From Promethearchaeota archaeon (lineage in GTDB: Archaea > Asgardarchaeota > Lokiarchaeia > Sigyniarchaeales > SOKP01), in the NCBI GenBank assembly GCA_019057795.1, contig JAHLWS010000069.1, forward strand, positions 46,835 through 110,834: a stretch of 64,000 nt of DNA, in the 5' to 3' direction. The notes below the pieces were generated by a model. The model ran no database searches. It was not told the DNA's origin and saw only the letters and a list, made by a program, of their open reading frames with translations. Positions 3,192 to 13,826 of this stretch are shown piece by piece (positions within the stretch are counted from its first letter, which is position 1; the number at the start of each line of letters is the position of its first letter). Made by a program: the position numbers and the translations under genes.

Positions 3192-4550
3192 CTAATACAT
3201 ATTTTTCAATCTTTCCATAAAAGGTTCTACACTTTTTTTGACTCCGTTTACATTTTCGCCTATTTTTTTGAAATTAATAACTATTGATGGTATATTTAAT
3301 TCCGTTTTCATTTTATCCTTTAATGTATCGTATGTTTTTGATATTGAAGGGCACCCAAATACCTGGTTGAAGATTAAACCATCTATGTTCATTCTTTTTG
3401 CTGCTGCTAAGTAGGAATTCGTCATATTTTCTCTGTTGCATCCAATTCCTTTTGTTGATGCGTTCAATAGAAAACGAGAGTAATCTTCAATGGGGTCGGA
3501 ATTTTTTGATAAAGGGATTTCTTCCAATAAACCTAGTAAGTCCCAATCAGCATAAATTATCCTTCCACCCAATTTATAAATAATTTCGTGTACTTCTGGT
3601 TCCCACCCTTGGTACATTGGGGCAAATAACACCCTTGGCATGTGAGAAACATCCATTCCTATACCTTTTTTGATCCTCTCTCTCATTTCTTTAACTAATT
3701 GACTCATATTATTTAAGTATCTTTGAGCGTTAGAATTATAATCTTGAAATGTTATTGTTAGAAGCGCTAGAATTTCCGCAAAGGATGCAGGATTACAAGG
3801 ATAGAAATTTGAAGTACTGATCTCATAAAGGATTGTTTTATAAAATCGCTTTACCTGGTTTCCTATTCGGAATTGTTTTTGTAAGCTACTATCTGTGACA
3901 AAATTTCCTGTTATACCCTCTAAATCACTGATCCCCCTTTTTACACTGTTTATTATTTGTTCTAGTGCCTTATTTTCATTTTCTAGATTTTTAGGAGGAA
4001 CCTCAATCGTTATTTGATTAGGGACTGTTGTTTTTAACGATTCAGAAAACTTATTCCATTCACCACAACGCATAGCAAAGTTAAGATTAGCGTCTAAATT
4101 TTTGCCCTTTGATAAATGCATTCCATAAAGAGCGTTAATTCCATAACATAATTCAGAGGGAACGCCATTATTAACACCTAATTCGTACATTTCATTATAT
4201 TTACTATGAATCGAGGTAATAACATCTTCAAGAATTTTATCGACTATTTTTAATATATCAAATTGACGAGCGAAATCTAGAAATTTTGATGTTAAACTCC
4301 AACCTAATACACTAGTGGCGGAATTTAACATTGCTAAGTACTTATTAACTTCAAACGATTCCATTCGAATTGGAAAAACTGGAATCCCTCCAACGGCAAA
4401 AGCTAAATCTGGGAAACCTAAGGCAACTGAAATTAATTTTTTCTTTTCTTTAAACTTTTTCTTTTTTAGATACTCTCTACCTGTTAAAAAATTATAAGCC
4501 ATTTTAAGAACAGACGTGAAACTTACGACATCGTCAGCGTATATACTCGT
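3192..4550 (-). CDS. 2-hydroxyacyl-CoA dehydratase subunit (HgdA/FldB-like), paralog of 10441..11796
   Basis: Colinear with 10441..11796 and keeps the Fe-S Cys positions (LCYG, RCG, FGCP). The ORF-track ATG is at 4502, but homology extends 16 codons upstream to ACG at 4548-4550. Confidence 0.8.
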   Translation of the reverse strand, partial: TSIYADDVVSFTSVLKMAYNFLTGREYLKKKKFKEKKKLISVALGFPDLAFAVGGIPVFPIRMESFEVNKYLAMLNSATSVLGWSLTSKFLDFARQFDILKIVDKILEDVITSIHSKYNEMYELGVNNGVPSELCYGINALYGMHLSKGKNLDANLNFAMRCGEWNKFSESLKTTVPNQITIEVPPKNLENENKALEQIINSVKRGISDLEGITGNFVTDSSLQKQFRIGNQVKRFYKTILYEISTSNFYPCNPASFAEILALLTITFQDYNSNAQRYLNNMSQLVKEMRERIKKGIGMDVSHMPRVLFAPMYQGWEPEVHEIIYKLGGRIIYADWDLLGLLEEIPLSKNSDPIEDYSRFLLNASTKGIGCNRENMTNSYLAAAKRMNIDGLIFNQVFGCPSISKTYDTLKDKMKTELNIPSIVINFKKIGENVNGVKKSVEPFMERLKNMY

Positions 4551-4652
4551 TTTAAAACCAACTCTAGCTGCTATTATAAAATAAGAATTTTCTACAACTA
4601 TAATTTAAAAATAGTCATCTAATTGTAATAAAATTTATGAGGTAAAGTATAA

Positions 4653-4669
4653 GGGTTTATGATTTTATT
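4653..4669. repeat. 17-bp direct repeat GGGTTTATGATTTTATT, copy 1 (copy 2 at 7100-7116)
   Basis: Exact match read directly from the sequence. Confidence 0.85.
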
Positions 4670-4799
4670 TGAACATCTTCATAAAAACTCCAAGATGAGT
4701 TTTTATTTCTTCGATTTTTTCGCCAATTTTATTATATATCATTGTTATTGATGGTATTTCAACTACTCGACATAATTTTTCTTTTAATATAACATATAC
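4665..4799 (-). pseudogene. 3' remnant of a 2-hydroxyacyl-CoA dehydratase alpha-type gene
   Basis: Translates VYVILKEKLCRVVEIPSITMIYNKIGEKIEEIKTHLGVFMKMFK*. This aligns without gaps to the C-terminus of 10441..11796 (CYTMLREKVRRELEIPTTAITFNKIGENIEQMKTRLGAFMEMFK*). The 5' part is absent, with an in-frame stop about 10 codons upstream. Confidence 0.85.
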
Positions 4800-4943
4800 T
4801 CTTAGAAGTTTTATTCTAATACTCGAATATTATCTCGGATTTGAAAATATTTATATTTCATGGTTTACTTCTTGAAATTCGAATTTTTCCGCAAACATAA
4901 GAGTTAAGCAAGATTTAATTGTATATAAAATGTATTATAAACC

Positions 4944-4963
4944 AAGAAAATGAAAATATGAAA
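4944..4963. repeat. 20-bp direct repeat AAGAAAATGAAAATATGAAA, copy 1 (copy 2 at 7146-7165)
   Basis: Exact match read directly from the sequence. Confidence 0.85.
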
Positions 4964-4976
4964 AAATCTGATCAAG

Positions 4977-5963
4977 ATGACTAAGGAAAAAATAAAAATT
5001 TGCGTACTTGAGAAAAAACGAGGAAATTTTTCAATACAAGAGAAATTTGCTAAAAACGAAAATATTATCGATACAACTAATCAAGAAGTAGAACATCATT
5101 TAAGTGCTTTAAATGAAGCGGGTTATGATGTAAAAATATTAAAATGGAATGACAATATAATTTATGATTTAAAAAGTCTTGACATTGATATCGTATTTAA
5201 TATATCCAGCATTGTTGAAACAGCTATTTTAGAAGAATTAGAGATACCTTATGTAGGGTCTGATGTTTTTGGATGCGTTATAGCAACCGATAAGGTTCTT
5301 ACTAAAGACTTGTGGTTTAAAAAAGGATTACCAACATCACCTTATATTTTAGCAAGATCAAAAGAGGATTGTGAAATTTTTAAGAAAAACAAGCCATTTG
5401 ATTATCCTTTATTTATAAAACCCTCTCAAGGGAGAGGAAGTTCTGGAATCGATGAATCCTCACTTATCTGTTCATATAACGAATTAATTAAAGGAGTTGA
5501 AAAAAGATTAAACACAATAAATCAACCTGTTCTTATTGAAAAATTTTTAAAAGGTAGGGAAATAACATGTGGAATTATTGGTAATGGAAATCAGATTAAA
5601 GCCTTACCTTTATTAGAAATAATACACAAGGAAAAGGAAAAATTCTTGACATTTAATAAAAAAGAGTTAGATGACGATCAATTCCAATGCCCTGCAAAAT
5701 TAACTCCGAAACAGTCTAAAGAATTACAGAAATTAGCTATTTCAGCATTTCAAGCGATAAATCTTAGAGATTATGGTCGTGTAGACATGATCTTATCAGA
5801 AGAAGGTCCTTTTTTATTAGAAATAAATTGTTTTGCAGGATTAATGTGTACACCAAAAGATAAACCTCATAGTTACATGGGCTTTATGGCAATTGCAGAA
5901 AACAAAAAAAGTAGTGAATTCTTAGATGAAATTATAAAAGAAGCATTAAAAAGAATTGGATAA
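4977..5963 (+). CDS. ATP-grasp ligase, D-alanine--D-alanine ligase family
   Basis: LEELEIPYVGSD, DKVLTK, PLFIKPSQGRGSSGI, LIEKFLKGREITCGI, RDYGRVD, LEINCFAG. Lacks the GGxSxE N-terminal motif of canonical Ddl. Confidence 0.85.
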   Translation: MTKEKIKICVLEKKRGNFSIQEKFAKNENIIDTTNQEVEHHLSALNEAGYDVKILKWNDNIIYDLKSLDIDIVFNISSIVETAILEELEIPYVGSDVFGCVIATDKVLTKDLWFKKGLPTSPYILARSKEDCEIFKKNKPFDYPLFIKPSQGRGSSGIDESSLICSYNELIKGVEKRLNTINQPVLIEKFLKGREITCGIIGNGNQIKALPLLEIIHKEKEKFLTFNKKELDDDQFQCPAKLTPKQSKELQKLAISAFQAINLRDYGRVDMILSEEGPFLLEINCFAGLMCTPKDKPHSYMGFMAIAENKKSSEFLDEIIKEALKRIG

Positions 5964-6005
5964 CTTTCGTTCAAACTAAAAACAAATTGTATTATGTGAA
6001 TTAAA

Positions 6006-7091
6006 ATGCCAATACTTGAAATAAATTTGAGAAAAATTAGACATAACGCAAAATTATTAAAGAATCTTTTAACTCAGCGAAATGTATCTATTATTGGAAT
6101 TACAAAACTTGTCTTAGGAAACCCTACTATTGCAATGACGTTGGTTCAAGGAGGAATAGAGTATTTAGGAGATTCACGAATTAACAATATTATTAAAATG
6201 AAAAAAAATAATATTAGAGCTCAATTTGTTTTAATTCGTATTCCAAGCATTACTGAAATTCCTCTTGTTGTTAAATACGCAAATTATAGCCTAAATTCAG
6301 AATTAAAGACCATAAGAATGCTTTCAAATGAAGCCGTTAAACAAAAAAAGATACATAATATAATTCTAATGGTAGATATGGGAGATTTAAGAGAAGGAAT
6401 AAATATATTCAATATTGAATTTTTTGTCGAAGAGATTTTAAAACTAAAAAATATAAATTTAAGTGGAATTGGTACAAATTTCAAATGTTTTGGTGGTATC
6501 ATCCCGACAGATGAAAATATGAATGAATTTTCAAAATTAGTCTTTAGGATCAAGGATAAATTTGAATTGGAATTAGAATTTGTTTCAGGAGGAAATTCTG
6601 CAAATTTTAACTGGTTTAAATCGTGTAAAAACATTGGTGAAATAAATAATTTTAGAATTGGGGAAGCCATGTTTCTAGGAAAAGAAACGATAAATTATGA
6701 ACCAATTCCAAATCTATATACAGACGCTTTTAAGTTAATAACAGAGATTGTTGAGTTAAAACAAAGATCTGTAATCCCCAAAGGGATTATTGTATCAAAT
6801 GCATTTGGGGAACGTGTCCAAACTTACCATAAAAAAATTAACAACGGTAAAAAAAGCGATATAATTAGAACACAAGCACTTTTAAATATAGGTAGACAAG
6901 ATATTGCAGTAAAAGGATTAAATCCGAAAGAAAGTATTAATATTCTTGGAGCTTCAAGCGACTACTTAGTTGTAGATATAAGAGATAATCAATTTCAGAT
7001 TGGACAAAAATTGCATTTTGATTTAAATTATGAAGCTCTTTTAAGAGCAATGACTAGTCCCTATATCCATAAGAAATTTATCGATATTTAA
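6006..7091 (+). CDS. PLP-dependent alanine/ornithine racemase family protein (fold type III)
   Basis: IIGITK (PLP Lys), LGDSRI, NSE, MVDMGDLREG, SGGNSA, FRIGEA, GRQD, ILGASSD; resembles ornithine racemase-type proteins. Confidence 0.85.
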   Translation: MPILEINLRKIRHNAKLLKNLLTQRNVSIIGITKLVLGNPTIAMTLVQGGIEYLGDSRINNIIKMKKNNIRAQFVLIRIPSITEIPLVVKYANYSLNSELKTIRMLSNEAVKQKKIHNIILMVDMGDLREGINIFNIEFFVEEILKLKNINLSGIGTNFKCFGGIIPTDENMNEFSKLVFRIKDKFELELEFVSGGNSANFNWFKSCKNIGEINNFRIGEAMFLGKETINYEPIPNLYTDAFKLITEIVELKQRSVIPKGIIVSNAFGERVQTYHKKINNGKKSDIIRTQALLNIGRQDIAVKGLNPKESINILGASSDYLVVDIRDNQFQIGQKLHFDLNYEALLRAMTSPYIHKKFIDI

Positions 7092-7099
7092 ATTTACAT

Positions 7100-7165
7100 G
7101 GGTTTATGATTTTATTCTGAATGGTAACGAAACACATTTTAGAAGAAGAAAATGAAAATATGAAA
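7100..7165. repeat. second copies of the 17-bp (7100-7116) and 20-bp (7146-7165) direct repeats
   Basis: Exact matches to 4653-4669 and 4944-4963, in the same order. Confidence 0.85.
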
Positions 7166-7516
7166 TTTATTTTTATTACAGTAAGGATAATTTTTAGTTT
7201 ATTAAAAAAAGTTCTAAAAAACATCTACATAATTGTAGAATTAAAATTTGCCTCTTAATCTATATAAATGACGCAAAATTTTAAATGTAATAATTGATAT
7301 AATAAGATAGGAAGAATTTTGCATTGAAACTTAAAACGGTATTAATTATCTAAATATTAGAATATATTTTTGTATCCAATAAATTAGGGATATAATTAGA
7401 GCAACTGGTTATTCACTGTTATTATTCTATCGAATTTTAATAATCACTACTCTGCAATCCAGTAAGTTTCTTTAATGCTTATTTCAAATATTGTTTGAAG
7501 GGTGTTTTATTCAATA

Positions 7517-9256
7517 ATGATGACTAACTCTTATTTAGAGAAAAAAAAAAATAGAAGAATTTTAACAGCATGTATAGGACAATGCGTGCATGTAGCAGGT
7601 ACATATAATTTCATTCAAATTTCAAAACAGTTAGGTTATAATAATATATTTTTAGGACCTGCTACCCCTATTTCAATTGTTATCGATCAAATTAAAAAGT
7701 ATGACCCTAACATTGTAGGGCTAAGTTATCGTTTAACGGCAGACACTGTTAGACCTTTACTAAATGAATTTTTTAAAAATTTTATAAAATTAGAGAAAAA
7801 ACCAAAAAAATTATTTTTTGCTGGAACACCTGAAGTAGTTGAGATTGCAAGAAAATATGAAGGGTTCGATGAATATTTTGTTGGAGGGGAATCAAAATTT
7901 GAATTAATTTCTATCTTGAGAAATGAGAAAGTAAAATCAGAAAGTAAAACAGAAATCCCTATGGACATTATTTCTCGAATACAATGGAAGAAACCTTATC
8001 CTGTAATTAGAGCGCACTTTGGATTACCTAATTTCAATGAAACAATAGAAGGAATAAAAAAAATTGCTAAAGCTAAAGTCTTAGATGTTATTTCAATTGC
8101 GCCCGATCAAAATACGCAAGCAAATTATTTCCACCCTGAAAATCAAGATAAAGAATTATCTGGAGCGGGCGGGGTTCCTTTGCGCACTCAGCAAGATTTC
8201 GAAAAGCTCCATCAGGCAAGATTAACCGGAAACTATCCGATGTTAAGGGTATATGCTGGAACACGCGATTTCATTAAATTAGGAAAATTGTATCGAGATA
8301 CAATTCAAAATGCTTGGGCAGCAATTCCTATTTTTTGGTTTAATCAAATGGATAGTAGGGGGCCTTTAACTTTAAAAGAATCGATTAAACAGCATCTAAA
8401 CGCAATAAAGTGGCACGGAAAGCACAATATTCCCGTTGAAGTAAACGATCCACATCATTGGAGCCTTCGAGACGCTCCTGATGCTATAGCTGTTGCTGAT
8501 ATGTATTTATGTGGAATAATAGCCAAAAAATTAGGCGTCAAAAATTTTATAGCACAATATATGTTTAATACACCTCCATCAAGTTCACTTGATATGGACT
8601 TAGCAAAAATTCTCGCTAAAGATGAGTTACTTCAAACGCTAGCCAATGAGAACTTTACGATAATTAAGCAAGTTCGAACGGGAATAACAAGTTTCCCATT
8701 AGATTTGGATAAAGCAAAAGGACAGCTTGCTACAGCGACATTTGTTCAATTAGCTATTAGACCAGACATTGTTCATGTAGTTAGTTCTTCTGAAGCTAGT
8801 CATGCAGCTCGTCCAGAAAATGTAATAGAAAGTTGTAAAATAGTGGATCAAGTCATAGATAAAGTTTATTCCTGTAAAATTAATATTATAGATAAAAAAA
8901 TTGAGGAAAGGAAAGAAGAATTAATAAGACAAGCCAAATGGATAGTTAATTTAATACCTCATCTAACAAAAAATGAAGAAGAAACGATAAGTCCATACAC
9001 CAATTATGAAGTTTTAAGTCGACTCGTAAAATATGGTATATTTGATGCCCCACATTTAAAAAACAATAAATTTGCGTTGGGTAAAATTAAAACAAAAGTA
9101 ATTAACGGTGCTTGTTATTCGTGGAATGAATCTCAGCAAAAAATTTACGATGAAATTGAAAGAATAAAAGACATTATCTTTAATAGCCCATTTAAAAATT
9201 TTTCTGATTCATTACAACAAAAAGAAAAATCCATCACAAAGGTGATGGATGAATGA
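7517..9256 (+). CDS. cobalamin-binding domain fused to a glutamate-mutase-epsilon-like TIM barrel (single-chain B12 mutase-like protein)
   Basis: N-terminal His-on B12 motif (CVHVAG...FLG...VGLSYRL...FAG). The C-terminal region has segments resembling GlmE (GTRD, AKKLGVKN, SFPLDLDKAKGQLATAT, SEA, GIFDAP). ORF-track start is GTG at 7502; ATG at 7517. Confidence 0.75.
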   Translation: MMTNSYLEKKKNRRILTACIGQCVHVAGTYNFIQISKQLGYNNIFLGPATPISIVIDQIKKYDPNIVGLSYRLTADTVRPLLNEFFKNFIKLEKKPKKLFFAGTPEVVEIARKYEGFDEYFVGGESKFELISILRNEKVKSESKTEIPMDIISRIQWKKPYPVIRAHFGLPNFNETIEGIKKIAKAKVLDVISIAPDQNTQANYFHPENQDKELSGAGGVPLRTQQDFEKLHQARLTGNYPMLRVYAGTRDFIKLGKLYRDTIQNAWAAIPIFWFNQMDSRGPLTLKESIKQHLNAIKWHGKHNIPVEVNDPHHWSLRDAPDAIAVADMYLCGIIAKKLGVKNFIAQYMFNTPPSSSLDMDLAKILAKDELLQTLANENFTIIKQVRTGITSFPLDLDKAKGQLATATFVQLAIRPDIVHVVSSSEASHAARPENVIESCKIVDQVIDKVYSCKINIIDKKIEERKEELIRQAKWIVNLIPHLTKNEEETISPYTNYEVLSRLVKYGIFDAPHLKNNKFALGKIKTKVINGACYSWNESQQKIYDEIERIKDIIFNSPFKNFSDSLQQKEKSITKVMDE

Positions 9257-10359
9257 GGTTCTGCGTTATTGGAGCAGGAAATGGTGGCCGAGCGTTTGCG
9301 GCATATTTATCATCAGAAGGATATCCTGTAAATCTATATAATCGCTCATATACCAGAATTTATGACATCAAAAAGAAAGGAGGAATAAAAGCAAAAGGGA
9401 AGTTAAAAGGCTTTTTCCCAATTGATCTGATTACACAAAATCTAAATTTGGCAGTTAAGAATGTAGATGTTATTTTAATAGTAACTCCTGCTTCAGCACA
9501 TAAAAGTATTGCAAAGAACATTGCACATTTTTTAACAAACGATCAGATAATATTGTTGAATCCAGGTAGAATTTTTGGAGCTGTAGAGTTTAGAAGTATA
9601 ATAGAAAAGGAAAGAGGGAATCTCCCTATTTTTATTGCTGAAACCCAAACATTACTTTTTACATCAAGACAATTGAAAAAAAATGAAGTTCAAATTCTTA
9701 CAATTAAGGATTCTGTTAGTTTTTCTGCTTTTCCAGAGAAGCATACGTTTTTCATTAGTGATACATTGAGAGATGTTTTTCCCCAAATGAATCCTATTGA
9801 TAATTATCTGCAAGTTACATTAAATAACATGGGGATGTTATTGCATCCAACTCTCTCATTATTGAATGCTAGTGCTATGGATTATGGAAGAAAGTTCAAT
9901 TTTTATGCACAAGGGGCATCTACACATACTTGTGAAATTCTTGAGGCTCTTCAAATGGAATTCAGAAAGATTTTTGAAAAGTTAAATTTAAAGCAAATAA
10001 ATTTTTGTGAATGGGTGGAGAAATCTTATGGATTTAAAGCAAACAATATCTATAATGCTATTCAAAAAATAGAGGCATATAAAAATATTGTTGCTCCAAA
10101 AGAATTAATAACTAGATATTTCACTGAGGATGTTCCAACTGGACTTGTACCTATGGCGTCATTAGGAGAATTCTTAGAAATTTCTACACCAATAATTGAT
10201 TCTATAATAAATTTATCTTCGATTTTATGTGGAATTGATTTTAGAAAAGAGGGAAGAAGCATTATGAACTTAAATTTAGCTAGCCATATAACTAAACAAA
10301 TGAAAGGAGAAGATATGTTGGGAATACTAGAAAGTCAAAAAACACAAATCGATGCTTAA
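9253..10359 (+). CDS. NAD/NADP octopine/nopaline (opine) dehydrogenase family protein
   Basis: Rossmann VIGAGNGG, LNPG, AETQT, LNNMGMLLHP, RYFTEDVPTGLVP. ATGA overlap with the upstream B12 gene. Confidence 0.9.
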   Translation: MRFCVIGAGNGGRAFAAYLSSEGYPVNLYNRSYTRIYDIKKKGGIKAKGKLKGFFPIDLITQNLNLAVKNVDVILIVTPASAHKSIAKNIAHFLTNDQIILLNPGRIFGAVEFRSIIEKERGNLPIFIAETQTLLFTSRQLKKNEVQILTIKDSVSFSAFPEKHTFFISDTLRDVFPQMNPIDNYLQVTLNNMGMLLHPTLSLLNASAMDYGRKFNFYAQGASTHTCEILEALQMEFRKIFEKLNLKQINFCEWVEKSYGFKANNIYNAIQKIEAYKNIVAPKELITRYFTEDVPTGLVPMASLGEFLEISTPIIDSIINLSSILCGIDFRKEGRSIMNLNLASHITKQMKGEDMLGILESQKTQIDA

Positions 10360-10440: not shown

Positions 10441-11796
10441 TTACTTAAACATTTCCATGAATGCACCGAGCCTTGTCTTCATTTGTTCGATGTTCTCTCC
10501 AATTTTATTAAAAGTAATTGCAGTTGTTGGTATCTCAAGCTCGCGTCTTACTTTCTCTCTCAGCATTGTATAACAATTTGAAATAGAATGACATCCAAAC
10601 AATTGAAAAAATATAAGACCATCGGCATTTAATTTTTTTGCCACTCTCAAATATGAGTCAGTTAACGTGTCGTTATCACACCCAATCCCTGATACTGTTG
10701 CATTTAAAAGAAATCGAGCGTATTCTTCAACAGGATTTAAATGATTAGCCACGGGAATTTCCTCTGAGAATTTTATTACTTCCCAGTCAGCATAAATCGC
10801 TCTCCCGCCTAGTTCATATATAATATCGTGGGTTTTTGGTTCCCATCCTCCGAATATTGGCGTTACAAAAATACGCGGCATTTTAGACACATCCATTCCA
10901 ATTCCCTTTCTTATTCTTTCCCGCATTTCGTCTACGAGTGAAATTAAATTATCCCTATATCGTATCGAATTAGAATTATAGTCTTGAAATGTAAGGCTTA
11001 ATAACGCCAGAATTTCACTAAATGTTGCTGGATTACACGGATAAAAATCAGAAGCACTAATATCGTAGATTATTGTTTTATAAGATTTTTTTACTTGATT
11101 ACTAATTTTAAAATGCTCTCTCAATTGATTATCCGTTATTGTGTTGCCAGTTAAATTCTCCAATTCTCTTATGGCGTTCGATACATTATCAGTTATAATT
11201 TCCAAAGCATTTCCAATATTTCTGGGAGGAATATCAACCCATATTTGCTTTGGGTCTTGATTGATTATTTTTAAGGATTCCATATATTTATTATACGCGC
11301 TACATCGAATTGTAACGTTGAGACATGCGTCTAAATTACGACCTTTGGAAATATGCGCACCAACTAAACTTTTCAACCCGTAACAGAAGTCACTTGAAAT
11401 TCCATTCTCAATTCCAAGATCATACATTTCGTTGTATTTTTTGTTAATCGTGTCAATTACATCCTCAATAATTCCGTCAACAATTTTACTGATTTCAGAT
11501 ATTCCAAGGTTCTTAACAAAACTTAAGAAGCTAGAAACATTTTTCCAGCCAAAAATACTAGACGCGGAGCCTAAGTACGCGAGGTATTTACTAATTTCAA
11601 AAGTGTGCATCCTTATCGGAAACACTGGTACAGCACCTGCCGCGAAAGCTAGATCTGAAAATGCTAAGGATACTCCAACTAGCTTTTTTTTCTCTCGGAA
11701 CTTTTTCCTTTTTAGATACTCTCTGCCTGTTAAAAGATTATAAGCCATTTTTAATACAGAACTAAAAGTTATTATTTCCTCAGCAATTAAACTCAT
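10441..11796 (-). CDS. 2-hydroxyacyl-CoA dehydratase subunit (HgdA/FldB-like)
   Basis: FCYG, RCS and FGCHS Cys pattern, C-terminal QMKTRLGAFMEM; translationally coupled to the upstream subunit. Confidence 0.8.
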   Translation of the reverse strand: MSLIAEEIITFSSVLKMAYNLLTGREYLKRKKFREKKKLVGVSLAFSDLAFAAGAVPVFPIRMHTFEISKYLAYLGSASSIFGWKNVSSFLSFVKNLGISEISKIVDGIIEDVIDTINKKYNEMYDLGIENGISSDFCYGLKSLVGAHISKGRNLDACLNVTIRCSAYNKYMESLKIINQDPKQIWVDIPPRNIGNALEIITDNVSNAIRELENLTGNTITDNQLREHFKISNQVKKSYKTIIYDISASDFYPCNPATFSEILALLSLTFQDYNSNSIRYRDNLISLVDEMRERIRKGIGMDVSKMPRIFVTPIFGGWEPKTHDIIYELGGRAIYADWEVIKFSEEIPVANHLNPVEEYARFLLNATVSGIGCDNDTLTDSYLRVAKKLNADGLIFFQLFGCHSISNCYTMLREKVRRELEIPTTAITFNKIGENIEQMKTRLGAFMEMFK

Positions 11797-12932
11797 TTCA
11801 TCATCTCCAAATACGCTTCTATTCTTGTTGAGAGCTGCCCTCGATTAGCTCGAGAATAGTCTCGCTCTAAATTCAATACTTGTATTCCTTTTTCTTGTAA
11901 CTCATTTTTCAAGAAAGAAGACATTAACGATATGTGGTCGCAAAATTTAATAATATGATTGAAAACGCCTAATTTTTTACCAGTTTTTTTTGTATAGTTC
12001 TTAGAATAATTATCAATCAAAGAAACTTTTTGTTGCAAGAAGTTAGGTACTGAATGGTCTCCACACGTATTATTTTTAAATCTCAGCACCAATAAATCTA
12101 AAGGATTTTTGTTTGAATTTATCGAGTCATCATCTATAACTTGTGAATAATAGTGATTTCCAATCCATGTATCGAAATAAACAATATTTCCCCCTCCTTC
12201 TTCGATTAAATCAATTAGGTTATCATTAATGAAGATAGAACATCCTGTAAATAAAATATCTTTAGATAAACCAAGGTTTTGAGGTGGATTGTTTTTTACT
12301 TCTTCAATGTACTTTTCTAAATCAGGTAGGAATGTTGGACCATATAATATTGCTTTTTGAATTATATTTAATTTTTCTGAGCCCAAAATCTCTAAATCAT
12401 TAACTTGCGATATTTTTTTTTTAAAATCATTATACTTCTTAATACTCTCAAATAATTTTTCGTCAGAAATTTTTTTACCTATAATATCTTCAAGCTTCTC
12501 CTTTAAATTTTGTAGCTCTATCTTGAAATATTTTAAACTACTTTCATTAGTCATATATGGGACATAAAAATTTAAACGAGAGATATTGAAATATTTAGTT
12601 ATTATTTCTGAAGCACAAATATCTGATACGCAGTGGTTTGAAACAATAAAATAATCCACCAAATCTAAAAATCTGTAGTTATTTGGTTTAGTAGAAAATA
12701 ATCCAATACATGATTGAGCAAATGCACATGTAGATGGAGGTAAAAAATCGTGACTAGCTTCCATTAACTCGTCATCCCCTCCAAACATCATCCTTAAAGG
12801 AAAGAAACCCGCTGCATCTATCAACTCTTCGGGGATATTGTCGTGAGCTAAAAAAGCAACGATTTTAACACCTTCTTGCTTTTTTTCTTTAAGAAATAAC
12901 GAAAACTCTGGGAGAAGAATGGGATCGGTCAT
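11793..12932 (-). CDS. 2-hydroxyacyl-CoA dehydratase subunit (HgdB/FldC-like)
   Basis: IPEELIDAAGFFP, TCAFAQS, HCVSD, KFCD, GQLSTRIEAYLEM. Confidence 0.88.
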   Translation of the reverse strand: MTDPILLPEFSLFLKEKKQEGVKIVAFLAHDNIPEELIDAAGFFPLRMMFGGDDELMEASHDFLPPSTCAFAQSCIGLFSTKPNNYRFLDLVDYFIVSNHCVSDICASEIITKYFNISRLNFYVPYMTNESSLKYFKIELQNLKEKLEDIIGKKISDEKLFESIKKYNDFKKKISQVNDLEILGSEKLNIIQKAILYGPTFLPDLEKYIEEVKNNPPQNLGLSKDILFTGCSIFINDNLIDLIEEGGGNIVYFDTWIGNHYYSQVIDDDSINSNKNPLDLLVLRFKNNTCGDHSVPNFLQQKVSLIDNYSKNYTKKTGKKLGVFNHIIKFCDHISLMSSFLKNELQEKGIQVLNLERDYSRANRGQLSTRIEAYLEMMK

Positions 12933-13046
12933 AATATTAGCTTGAGTAGTATGAAATTATCTATCTGAAAAGACTTATTTCCTTAAAAAAGTTTCCCGAT
13001 TTAAAATATAGATAAAAATATTAAAATTAGCTGAAATAAAATTAAT

Positions 13047-13826
13047 CTAATTAGAATTGTTTTCTTGAGCTATTAAAGCGGCACCAATAGCTCCCGTGAG
13101 TTGAGGAAATTCGGGTGTTTCGATGCCATATCCAAGTTCATCTTCTAAAAATTTTTTTACAGCAGGGTTTTTGGCGACTCCACCACAGAAAATAAGTTTA
13201 GGTCCTACTCCAATACGTTTTGCCATTCCGGCAACTCTTCTCGCAATTGATTTATGTATGCCGCTTGCGATCTCTTCTTTAGAAGCCCCTCTCGCGAATA
13301 AACTTATTACTTCGCTTTCTGCGAAAACTGTACATGTTGAACTTATTGAAGCCGATTTGTTAGATCGTAAAGCTAAATCTCCAAATTGATCAATAGGAAC
13401 TTCCAACGCGTGAGCCATGACTTCCAAAAACCGGCCCGTTCCTGCTGCGCATTTGTCATTCATTTGAAAGTCAATAACATTTCCAGTTTTTGCAGACATT
13501 ACAATTGCTTTACTATCTTGACCCCCAATATCTATTACGGAATTAGCATCTGGAAAGAAATATTGCACCCCCCTAGCGTGAGCTGTAATTTCAGTCACTC
13601 GATCGTCTGCAAAGTCTACTGTATTTCTTCCGTAACCGGTGCTCATAATGTGTACATCTTCCTTCTTCAAACTGTGTTTATTTAATATTTCATTAAATAA
13701 ATTATGACCAATTCTTTTGAAATCATATGTGGATCTTTCTGTTCGGTGATCAATTAACTTCCTATCGTTAATAAGCACTATCTTTGTTGCCAAAGAACCA
13801 ATATCTATACCAATAAAATTCTTCAA
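13047..13826 (-). CDS. acyl-CoA dehydratase activase (HgdC/FldI-type ASKHA [4Fe-4S] ATPase)
   Basis: GIDIGS, TGYGR, TEITAHARG, IDIGGQDSK, MNDKCAAGTGRFLE, SSTCTVFAESE, GGVAKN. Confidence 0.95.
   Translation of the reverse strand: MKNFIGIDIGSLATKIVLINDRKLIDHRTERSTYDFKRIGHNLFNEILNKHSLKKEDVHIMSTGYGRNTVDFADDRVTEITAHARGVQYFFPDANSVIDIGGQDSKAIVMSAKTGNVIDFQMNDKCAAGTGRFLEVMAHALEVPIDQFGDLALRSNKSASISSTCTVFAESEVISLFARGASKEEIASGIHKSIARRVAGMAKRIGVGPKLIFCGGVAKNPAVKKFLEDELGYGIETPEFPQLTGAIGAALIAQENNSN

Follow-up and report, generated by a model that had tools for sequence, protein, structure and literature searches.

Known isomerase reactions that depend on adenosylcobalamin number, to our knowledge, only about a dozen. 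The closest described counterpart of the mutase considered here is glutamate (methylaspartate) mutase of Clostridium cochlearium (structures 1cb7 and 6h9e), which is built of two subunits, GlmS and GlmE, and has a dedicated reactivase, GlmL/MutL. Opine dehydrogenases catalyse reversible reactions. A metagenomic group of these enzymes (mODHs) is specific for acidic amino acids, with a poor KM for aspartate of ~25 mM, while the specificity of ArODH was switched to L-aspartate by mutagenesis (A111R/N198G) and an Arg at ArODH position 35 marks NADPH use (Telek et al. 2024, PMC10787698). The poor KM of the mODHs suggests that their native substrate is a different one. Enzymes of comparable kinds act together in the synthesis of pyrrolysine (PylB, PylC, PylD) and of staphylopine (CntK, CntL, CntM), and the D-Ala-D-Ala ligase DdlB (PDB 2dln/1iov) is the reference for the ligase.

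Here we describe a set of four genes in the genome of an Asgard archaeon (Promethearchaeota) of cold-seep or marine sediment, lying in a window of 64,000 nucleotides (the whole stretch of DNA analysed). We found no published description of such a set in the literature. The nearest relatives of the locus were Promethearchaeota MAGs, which confirmed its archaeal origin. The genes, which we call LIG, RAC, MUT and ODH, and their surroundings are as follows.

3192-4502 and 10441-12932, opposite strand to the cassette: flanking genes of the 2-hydroxyacyl-CoA-dehydratase family (Pfam/NCBIfam)
4648-4963, + strand: first copies (4648-4669, 4934-4963) of two direct repeats (D6, D3) bracketing LIG-RAC
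4977-5963, + strand: LIG, non-canonical Ddl-family ATP-grasp amide ligase (predicted), 328 aa (PF07478)
6006-7091, + strand: RAC, Orr-like PLP-dependent amino-acid racemase (predicted), 361 aa (PF01168, NF040742)
7092-7516, + strand: intergenic spacer parting LIG-RAC from MUT-ODH, with the second repeat copies at 7095-7116 and 7136-7165
7517-9256, + strand: MUT, single-chain B12-binding and GlmE-like TIM-barrel mutase (predicted), 579 aa (motifs, Foldseek)
9253-10359, + strand: ODH, NAD(P)H opine dehydrogenase (predicted), 368 aa (PF02317, match to 1bg6)
13047-13826, opposite strand to the cassette: activase gene (Pfam/NCBIfam)

An earlier note, made from the sequence alone, had described co-oriented ligase, racemase, B12 mutase and opine dehydrogenase genes at 4977-10359, placed opposite to a dehydratase locus; Pfam and NCBIfam searches confirmed the open reading frames and their families, and the flanking dehydratase and activase genes were indeed on the other strand. 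The translational coupling of ODH to MUT that it proposed was borne out by an ATGA overlap of stop and start codons at 9253-9256. MUT most likely starts at the ATG at 7517 and not at the GTG at 7502. On balance we favour, with modest confidence, the interpretation that all four genes belong to a single biosynthetic cassette of two modules, the product of which would be an unusual and so far undescribed amino-acid conjugate.

MUT was predicted to consist of a B12-binding domain (residues ~12-135) and a GlmE-like TIM barrel (residues ~160-560), and Pfam and NCBIfam returned weak B12-binding and Met_asp_mut_E matches. Its score against TIGR01503 (21.2 bits, cut-off 390) placed it outside the glutamate mutase family, its match to PF06368 (30.4 bits, cut-off 26.6) spanned only profile positions 183-347, and profile searches did not reach GlmE. 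When the AlphaFold model (pLDDT 75) was searched with Foldseek, the best match was the glutamate mutase E chain 6h9e_B (E 3.6e-14; TM 0.64 by target; ~437 aligned columns), with 6h9e_B and 1cb7_B as top matches (E ~1e-13), and the N-terminal domain aligned with corrinoid-binding domains (e.g. 4jgi, E 6e-7). In the model, the fold of a GlmE-type TIM barrel with a Rossmann B12 domain holds up, in agreement with the glutamate-mutase-like B12 fusion that the earlier note had recognised. The motifs CxHxxG, SYRL and GG were present; His25, G28, S70-x-x-L73 and G123 were invariant across homologues and G124 was invariant among Asgard sequences, while an invariant Cys23 stood in place of the Asp of the canonical DxHxxG, which the sister mutase families have.

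The MUT family comprised 709 cluster representatives at E<=1e-10 and had members in 98 of the 251 Asgard genomes sampled, with ~70% identity across Asgard lineages; fusions with a MutL reactivase (P0266) and with an ATP-grasp domain (MUT::ATP-grasp, P0246) were among its members. The host genome encodes a CobA-type adenosyltransferase and had 20 B12-binding matches, no MutL reactivase was found in it, and a survey of 121 Asgard genomes gave no canonical GlmE. From the fold, the canonical motif of the sister families, the MutL fusion and the B12 genes of the host, we propose that MUT belongs to an undescribed family of adenosylcobalamin-dependent radical mutases; the remote match to glutamate mutase, the Cys in the B12 loop and the missing MutL speak against the proposed scheme.

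RAC scored 88 bits against PF01168 Ala_racemase_N and 370 bits over its full length (2-357) against the ornithine racemase model NF040742 racem_Orr (cut-off 480), and is, judged by these profiles, a relative of Orr but not an equivalog. This resemblance to ornithine racemase, together with the presence of ornithine 4,5-aminomutase and lysine 5,6-aminomutase among Foldseek matches 3-9 of MUT, could indicate a modified clostridial ornithine pathway, in which RAC would deliver D-ornithine, MUT would be an OraSE-like B12/PLP aminomutase and ODH would replace the diamino-acid dehydrogenase. We consider this highly improbable. The PLP-binding lysine of B12/PLP aminomutases is placed, in their structures, shortly after the B12 His ligand, whereas the MUT column 12 residues after His25 held K, T, S or Q across homologues with no conserved lysine, and an OraSE- or KamDE-type assignment was rejected on these grounds. 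Moreover, most genomes with MUT-ODH had no RAC while ODH was constant, the catalytic residues of ODH were intact and its acidic-substrate determinants present, and OraS, thiolase and Ord genes were not found beside the cassette in the Pfam/NCBIfam scan of window genes. Among the window genes scanned, no methylaspartase was found beside MUT.

ODH matched PF02317 Octopine_DH with 133 bits (cut-off 30) and CENDH (1bg6) over the full length with 260 bits; as in opine dehydrogenases, it had a GxGxxG motif (G7-A-G-N-G-G) and invariant catalytic residues H198, R288 and D293. According to the alignment with 1bg6 and the published numbering, R106, G194 and R31 occupy ArODH positions 111, 198 and 35, which places ODH in the mODH subclass; among 22 ODHs linked to MUT, R106 and G194 were invariant and R31 occurred in at least 90%. 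Overall, ODH stood no nearer to the mODHs that prefer acidic substrates than it did to ArODH (42% identity, 70-residue sample), so the predicted acidic specificity rests on a few diagnostic residues. The Arg/Gly pair for acidic substrates would fit a glutamate-mutase-like partner that supplies 3-methylaspartate.

Across genomes, ODH adjoined MUT in all 76 related loci of Asgard and Anaerolineae in which there was space for a downstream gene, and the pair was present in a cultured bacterium, Bellilinea caldifistulae GOMI-1 (L067). For a more distant sister mutase family of ~620 aa from Bacteroidota and Clostridiales, ODH was adjacent in L103 and L106 and ~3 kb away in L104. An AsnB-like enzyme or another ATP-grasp filled the operon slot of LIG in many loci, the order being MUT-ODH-AsnB in 11 Anaerolineae loci and MUT, ODH, ATP-grasp in L078/L079. 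The conserved core consists of MUT and ODH only, and LIG-RAC is a separate, optional module.

Dehydratase subunits and an activase were located within 10 kb of MUT-ODH, in convergent orientation, in ~22 Asgard loci, and the host genome contained several dehydratase paralogues. Given that ODH reactions are reversible, these neighbours would suit a catabolic role, as the earlier note had considered: an opine, pseudopeptide or D-amino acid from the sediment would be broken down, with ODH acting oxidatively, MUT reshaping the acid, and 2-oxo or 2-hydroxy acids passing to the 2-hydroxyacyl-CoA dehydratase. However, the synteny was seen in Asgard loci only; the loci of Anaerolineae, Bacteroidota and Clostridiales did not have it, which makes the link a lineage-specific one. 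In addition, no hydrolase or CoA-transferase was consistently attached, the Bacteroidota homologues were located within a polysaccharide-synthesis cluster, and the ATP-grasp ligases and AsnB-like enzymes found with MUT-ODH consume ATP and make bonds. We therefore regard breakdown as rather improbable and retain biosynthesis as the preferred direction.

LIG scored 104 bits against PF07478 Dala_Dala_lig_C and 150 bits against the best NCBIfam Ddl model (cut-off 243), which leaves it outside Ddl, and it fell far under the cut-offs of all Ddl and Van models. Alignment with E. coli DdlB showed that the ATP-grasp catalytic residues were retained, with K106, K148, E188, R268, D270, E282 and N284 invariant as in the ATP-grasp superfamily, while E15 and HGxxGEDG, motifs of the first D-Ala site, were missing and the omega-loop K-Y (K215-Y216 of Ddl) had become K-E. 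Because the D-Ala1-site motifs of true Ddl are missing, LIG is not expected to be simply a maker of D-Ala-D-Ala, the outcome that the earlier note had named as fatal to its proposal; it is classed as an ATP-grasp enzyme distinct from Ddl.

An Orr-like racemase gene neighboured LIG almost everywhere that LIG occurred; RAC immediately followed LIG in 10 of the 12 distinct contexts. LIG-RAC and mutase-containing modules formed joint operons in three or more other contexts that differed in gene order: ODH, sister MUT, LIG (59% identity) and RAC in L098/L099; MUT, ODH, LIG (58%) and RAC (41%) in L100; and sister MUT, a second ATP-grasp, LIG and RAC in L101. In a further locus (L085), MUT-ODH was 3.3 kb from LIG. 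All nine LIG-positive genomes among the 251 sampled Asgard genomes had MUT, and a DUF5698/DUF2179 membrane protein was a neighbour common to both modules. A functional link between the four families is thus supported by gene context, and the co-occurrence of the ligase-racemase and mutase-dehydrogenase pairs elsewhere, which the earlier note had put forward as a check, was found in these operons, in the fusion and in the nine genomes. The link appears to be facultative, as MUT-ODH was found in 98 of 251 Asgard genomes vs nine for LIG, most MUT-ODH genomes having no LIG, and LIG-RAC often stood alone, as in L083 and in most Asgard genomes of family f6, where no MUT-ODH lay closer than 8 kb.

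Compared to L005 and L047, nucleotide identity was 99% for LIG, 98-99% for RAC, 94-96% for MUT and 91% for ODH, vs 73-79% for flanking genes, a mosaic that indicates that the block LIG-RAC-MUT-ODH moves as a unit. LIG-RAC occurred at only 6 of ~52 Asgard MUT loci, and the at least 93% MUT identity of all six argues for a single insertion event. The repeats around LIG-RAC (families D6, 91%, and D3, 87%) are consistent with a footprint of insertion or recombination, and in close relatives the distance from the upstream dehydratase gene to LIG varied between 0.2 and 3.1 kb. We propose that, in this genus, LIG-RAC was recently inserted beside a resident MUT-ODH pair and that sibling species have since exchanged the block. 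RNA-library contigs from two studies covered all four genes, so expression of the cassette is possible; none bridged 7091-7383 and one started at 7383, which hints weakly at a separate start of transcription. The spacer at 7092-7516, which had no match to an Rfam family, probably harbours the MUT-ODH promoter.

Such a history could also be that of two functionally unrelated modules that are adjacent by chance: a mobile LIG-RAC pair making a D-amino-acid dipeptide would have inserted at a hot spot, variable and intergenic, that lies upstream of a MUT-ODH pair with another role. The single event, the bracketing repeats, the variable spacer and the 425-nt gap between RAC and MUT without a bridging RNA contig would be expected in that case, as would the solitary LIG-RAC pairs (L083, L086, L089-L095). 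Nevertheless, we judge chance adjacency unlikely, since independent juxtaposition was seen in at least four other contexts (L085, L098, L100, L101), with other orders and other mutase subfamilies, and since the MUT::ATP-grasp fusion, the AsnB-like/ATP-grasp enzymes in the same operon slot, the presence of MUT in every LIG genome and the shared membrane-protein neighbour all speak for a connection. Of the four-gene functional unit envisaged in the earlier note, the linkage of the families stood, whereas a fixed set of four gave way to a core pair with a recently inserted module.

Beside the observed families, fold, co-occurrence, specificity residues and mosaic identity, we infer substrates, step order, product and product fate for the favoured biosynthetic cassette. 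MUT would act on an acidic amino acid and rearrange its carbon skeleton, with conversion of L-glutamate to 3-methylaspartate or a close analogue as the most economical guess, and ODH, translationally coupled to it, would reductively condense pyruvate with an acidic L-amino acid, NADPH being the probable reductant, to an N-(1-carboxyethyl) opine-type tricarboxylate; these two steps could run in reverse order. RAC would provide a D-amino acid, possibly of the ornithine or lysine type as suggested by its Orr-like character, and LIG would form an amide between the D-amino acid and an opine carboxylate. The first substrate of LIG may be an N-alkylated D-alanyl arm, which would suit the loss of the pocket for the free ammonium of D-Ala1. 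In other organisms, an AsnB-like enzyme or another ATP-grasp would form the amide. The final product would be a branched pseudopeptide, and gene contexts elsewhere point to its being exported or surface-attached, perhaps as a glycan decoration, solute or metal binder. It is conceivable, although we put it forward as doubtful, that MUT-ODH with an interchangeable amide-forming partner makes a new class of natural products, B12-dependent branched opine-type polycarboxylates such as N-(1-carboxyethyl)-3-methylaspartyl-D-amino acid, that Asgard, Anaerolineae, Bacteroidota and Clostridia would use for surface-glycan decoration or as a solute or metal binder, with a MUT reaction that may lie outside the known adenosylcobalamin list (e.g. 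on the opine itself).

The large, well-conserved and unstudied MUT family may thus offer a new B12 isomerase reaction, to the chemistry of which the fixed ODH partner gives a hint. Linkage to MUT also gives a physiological setting to acid-preferring ODHs, so far characterised only as biocatalysts, and a methylaspartate-type opine coupled to a D-amino acid by an ATP-grasp ligase is a testable hypothesis. For Asgard archaea, the cassette points to D-amino-acid or pseudopeptide chemistry in murein-free cells, spread as a small transferable block.

With regard to described systems, pyrrolysine synthesis is alike in logic, with a radical skeleton rearrangement, ATP-grasp ligation and a nicotinamide-dependent step, but PylB is a radical-SAM enzyme whereas MUT is predicted to be B12-dependent, and the dehydrogenase belongs to the opine family, unlike PylD. 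Staphylopine synthesis shares a racemase (CntK) and an opine dehydrogenase (CntM), while a CntL-type nicotianamine-synthase-like gene is absent from the cassette. The resemblance to the Pyl and Cnt systems noted earlier therefore holds as analogy only, not as membership. DdlB and LIG have in common the ATP-grasp fold, the lysines, the Glu/Asn Mg2+ ligands and the equivalents of Arg255/Asp257 and Ser281; LIG differs in the missing E15 and HGxxGEDG, a Glu at the Tyr216 position, a 6-residue insertion ahead of the HS motif and a host that is an archaeon without murein. ODH is a full-length homologue of ArODH/CENDH of Arthrobacter sp. 1C (1bg6), with the catalytic His-Asp dyad and Arg, and shares with the mODHs the equivalents of Arg (111), Gly (198) and Arg (35); it differs in its tie to a B12 mutase, and its specificity is a predicted one. 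GlmS/GlmE and MUT have the same predicted fold of B12 Rossmann domain and TIM barrel, and relatives of MUT are fused to a MutL-type reactivase. In contrast to the two-subunit enzyme, MUT is one chain with an N-terminal B12 domain, only ~17% sequence identity, CxHxxG instead of DxHxxG, and an opine dehydrogenase as partner; a methylaspartate-type product, as made by glutamate mutase, would suit an ODH with acidic-substrate determinants.

The earlier note had described four co-oriented genes lying opposite to a dehydratase locus, and the open reading frames and their family matches bear this out:

LIG, 4977-5963, co-oriented with RAC, MUT and ODH: Ddl-like ATP-grasp ligase (Dala_Dala_lig_C 104 bits; all Ddl/Van models far under cut-off, best 150 vs 243).
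RAC, 6006-7091, same orientation: Orr-like PLP racemase (Ala_racemase_N 88 bits; Orr 370 bits over its full length, cut-off 480).
MUT, 7517-9256, same orientation: single-chain B12-binding, GlmE-like mutase of 579 aa (weak B12-binding and Met_asp_mut_E matches).
ODH, 9253-10359, same orientation: opine dehydrogenase of 368 aa (Octopine_DH 133 bits).

LIG and RAC are separated by 42 nt and RAC and MUT by a 425-nt spacer, while the MUT stop overlaps the ODH start (ATGA). On the opposite strand, the cassette is flanked by an activase gene and by 2-hydroxyacyl-CoA dehydratase-family genes. The window is AT-rich (GC ~30%), its nearest relatives are Promethearchaeota (Lokiarchaeia-type Asgard) MAGs, and near-identical DNA recurs in metagenomes of cold seeps and marine sediments across many studies. 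Rfam searches returned no riboswitch or other RNA family in the window or in 11 related loci, and a scan of the window with a sigma-70 promoter model, which is bacterial and inapplicable to an archaeal host, gave no excess of sites. Metatranscriptome contigs from two studies span parts of all four genes at 90–99% identity, with DNA carry-over possible. Contigs from X16–X18 leave 7091–7383 unbridged, a gap that proves nothing on co-transcription, and one contig starts at 7383, which hints at best that MUT-ODH has a promoter of its own.

The 24 Asgard homologues of MUT are ~70% identical over their full length (mean column identity 78%). The N-terminal 135 residues of MUT align with corrinoid-binding domains and include C-x-H-x-x-G, invariant among these homologues, followed by S-Y-R-L and G-G; the Cys is kept in Anaerolineae homologues, and the canonical D-x-H-x-x-G is found in distant sister families of ~620 aa. 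An orthologue of MUT occurs in Bellilinea caldifistulae (L067). The database name 'methionine synthase' given to MUT homologues was rejected, as it is carried over from the B12 domain only. An AlphaFold model of MUT (pLDDT 75) best matched the glutamate mutase E chains 6h9e_B and 1cb7_B (E ~1e-13, ~437 aligned columns), followed by ornithine 4,5-aminomutase, lysine 5,6-aminomutase and acyl-CoA mutases. Profile searches of PDB sequences with the catalytic domain failed to reach GlmE, and by curated thresholds MUT does not qualify as a glutamate mutase. Canonical GlmE was found neither in the window's genome nor among 121 Asgard genomes, and none of the 709 matches to MUT (E ≤ 1e-10) among 1.84 billion cluster representatives bore a functional name. 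We read MUT as belonging to a new family that shares the fold class of Glm and the aminomutases; it is most likely a carbon-skeleton mutase.

MutL/GlmL-type reactivases are typical companions of AdoCbl radical enzymes, and one is naturally fused to a MUT-type mutase in the homologue P0266. The window's genome encodes a CobA-type adenosyltransferase and gave 20 B12-binding matches; a search of it for MutL found none. Several divergent MUT matches (40–51% identity) contain one in-frame stop, TAA/TAG in family f6 (genomes G003, G151, G154, G160 and G187) and TGA in f8 (G046, G093, G161 and G200), which may reflect match overrun, broken genes or recoding. In some Asgard genomes, two MUT-ODH pairs lie ~10 kb apart on one contig (L035 1-2045 and 10001-12822; G104 contig C23). 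The homologue P0252 (732 aa) is extended at its C-terminus by a segment that weakly resembles the D,D-peptidase family Peptidase_M15_3, scoring under the cut-off; this adds a faint pointer to chemistry on peptides with D-amino acids.

ODH aligned over its whole length with the Arthrobacter N-(1-D-carboxyethyl)-L-norvaline dehydrogenase (ArODH; PDB 1bg6; 260 bits) and retains its catalytic His, Arg and Asp. Six orphan metagenomic ODHs were previously characterised, and their preferred partners for pyruvate are the acidic L-amino acids Asp, Glu and cysteate; in the same study, the two-residue swap A111R + N198G moved ArODH from hydrophobic substrates to L-aspartate, and Arg at position 35 marked NADPH use (Telek et al. 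2024, PMC10787698). At positions 111, 198 and 35 the 1bg6 alignment places R106, G194 and R31 of the window ODH. Among 22 ODHs linked to mutases, taken from loci of Asgard, Anaerolineae, Bacteroidota and Clostridiales, R106, G194, H198, R288 and D293 are invariant, and R31 occurs in at least 90%. Since overall identity to the sampled metagenomic ODH segment is only 42%, the case for an acidic substrate rests on these diagnostic residues. The metagenomic enzymes bind L-aspartate poorly (KM ~25 mM; PMC10787698), which suggests that their native acidic substrate is another compound; for ODH the obvious candidate would be a methylaspartate-type product of its partner MUT. Complex prediction for MUT and ODH scored 0.00, which weighs neither for nor against association.

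The comparison covered about 100 loci and 251 Asgard genomes. Among 82 loci around MUT homologues, ODH adjoined MUT in all 76 that had room for it. LIG and RAC form a tight pair of their own, frequently found by itself; it was present in only six of the 82, all with at least 93% MUT identity and forming one clade. The 251 sampled Asgard genomes contained MUT in 98 cases and LIG in 9. That two unrelated modules became adjacent by chance is a reading these counts invite, and one we consider unlikely. MUT is present in all nine LIG-positive genomes, which are related to one another, and this lends weak support to linkage. The earlier note had staked its four-gene pathway on the two pairs being found together elsewhere, and they do co-occur: ODH, a sister-family MUT, LIG (59%) and RAC run head to tail on an archaeal contig with TBP genes (L098/L099), an Anaerolineae locus (L100) carries MUT, ODH, LIG (58%) and RAC (41%), and in another Asgard lineage 3.3 kb separate LIG from MUT-ODH (L085). 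Two further loci (L101/L102) combine a sister MUT, a second ATP-grasp, LIG and RAC. The common Anaerolineae operon is MUT-ODH-AsnB-like-DUF5698, with an ATP-grasp filling the AsnB slot in L078/L079; a Rikenellaceae polysaccharide cluster holds a sister MUT, ODH and two ATP-grasps amid glycosyltransferases and a flippase, and in Clostridiales loci Alg13/14-like transferases and cell-wall-binding proteins adjoin ODH-MUT. These independent arrangements, together with a natural fusion of a MUT-type mutase to an ATP-grasp domain (P0246), show that a MUT-ODH core repeatedly calls for an enzyme that forms amides at its side.

An Orr/OraSE-like ornithine pathway, to which the Orr-like racemase might point, is highly improbable, as RAC is optional, ODH is a true opine enzyme and MUT homologues have no conserved lysine at the position where the aminomutases bind PLP.

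The AsnB-like partners of MUT-ODH (L019 4145-5686, L020 6966-8504, L056, L059, L063, L069) often lack an N-terminal catalytic Cys. The N-terminus reads M-A-G-I-F in the Asgard proteins and M-S-G-I-A-G in some of those from Anaerolineae, which leaves them without the glutaminase Cys2; M-T-A-I-A-G also occurs. The usual use of glutamine is presumably closed to such partners, whose chemistry could conceivably depend on ammonia or resemble that of beta-lactam synthetase. A small DUF5698/DUF2179 membrane protein is a neighbour common to LIG-RAC and MUT-ODH modules in different lineages (L083 9237-9803, L085 8503-9093, L058/L063/L069/L075/L078-L081). An MFS transporter follows ODH in related Asgard loci (L002, L011-L015). 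With the relatives' proteins as queries, tblastn of the window's own genome found no AsnB-like, DUF5698/DUF2179 or MFS orthologue. One bacterial ODH-MUT pair (L103 2768-10720) adjoins zinc-starvation-type genes (cobW-family, ZnuA/ZinT, L33 and S14 ribosomal-protein genes), a setting that would fit a metal-binding product.

Direct repeats (4648-4669/7095-7116 and 4934-4963/7136-7165) bracket LIG-RAC. Full-length dehydratase-subunit paralogues (3192-4502 and 10441-11796; 57% protein identity) lie one on each side of the cassette. The 3192-4502 copy was rejected as an integration scar; it is old synteny, also present in relatives without LIG-RAC (L010, L012, L016), and so predates the insertion. 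Nucleotide identity to two related species (L005/L047) was 99% for LIG, 98–99% for RAC, 94–96% for MUT and 91% for ODH, and 73–79% for flanking genes on both sides. By this mosaic, the block was recently swapped between species, in a tract centred on LIG-RAC. In relatives (L002 12430-15047, L011-L015) the dehydratase operon goes on with a GCS2-type carboxylate-amine ligase, a GGACT (gamma-glutamyl cyclotransferase-like) gene and a class-I glutamine amidotransferase/peptidase C26; the window has none of these, nor the MFS gene. The flanking dehydratase might be fed by a catabolic cassette, a role we regard as improbable, as dehydratase synteny is confined to Asgard loci and the attached enzymes form bonds.

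RAC is an Orr relative; it was rejected as an Orr equivalog (370 bits, below the cut-off of 480). In L098, the racemase copy adjoining LIG is truncated, and another Orr-like racemase, intact and with 46.5% identity to RAC, directly follows a DUF1611 protein (11266-13409), a pairing for which DgcN/DgcA offers a possible lead.

Literature searches returned nothing relevant on glutamate mutase or cobalamin with opine dehydrogenase, glutamate mutase with Asgard, ornithine racemase with ATP-grasp in archaea, or D-alanine ligase with Asgard, and no paper linking the four families was found. We infer a route in which MUT, by AdoCbl radical chemistry, would convert an acidic amino acid through a 1,2-rearrangement like that of glutamate to 3-methylaspartate, and ODH, with NADPH, would join an acidic L-amino acid to pyruvate, giving an N-(1-D-carboxyethyl) derivative. 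RAC would supply a D-amino acid, which LIG would couple to one of the opine's carboxylates after activating it; in other organisms the amide step would fall to an AsnB-like enzyme. Gene contexts suggest that the end product is exported or surface-bound.

An alignment with E. coli DdlB shows that the catalytic elements of ATP-grasp enzymes (K106, K148, E188, R268, D270, E282, N284 and the HS motif) are retained in the LIG family. E15 and the HGxxGEDG motif, with which DdlB holds the first D-alanine, are missing. This combination points to an amide ligase whose first substrate would be unlike that of Ddl, and the D-alanyl-like carboxyethyl arm of an opine would explain the loss of these ammonium-binding motifs. 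Compared to DdlB, LIG also has K-E in place of K215-Y216 and an insertion before HS.
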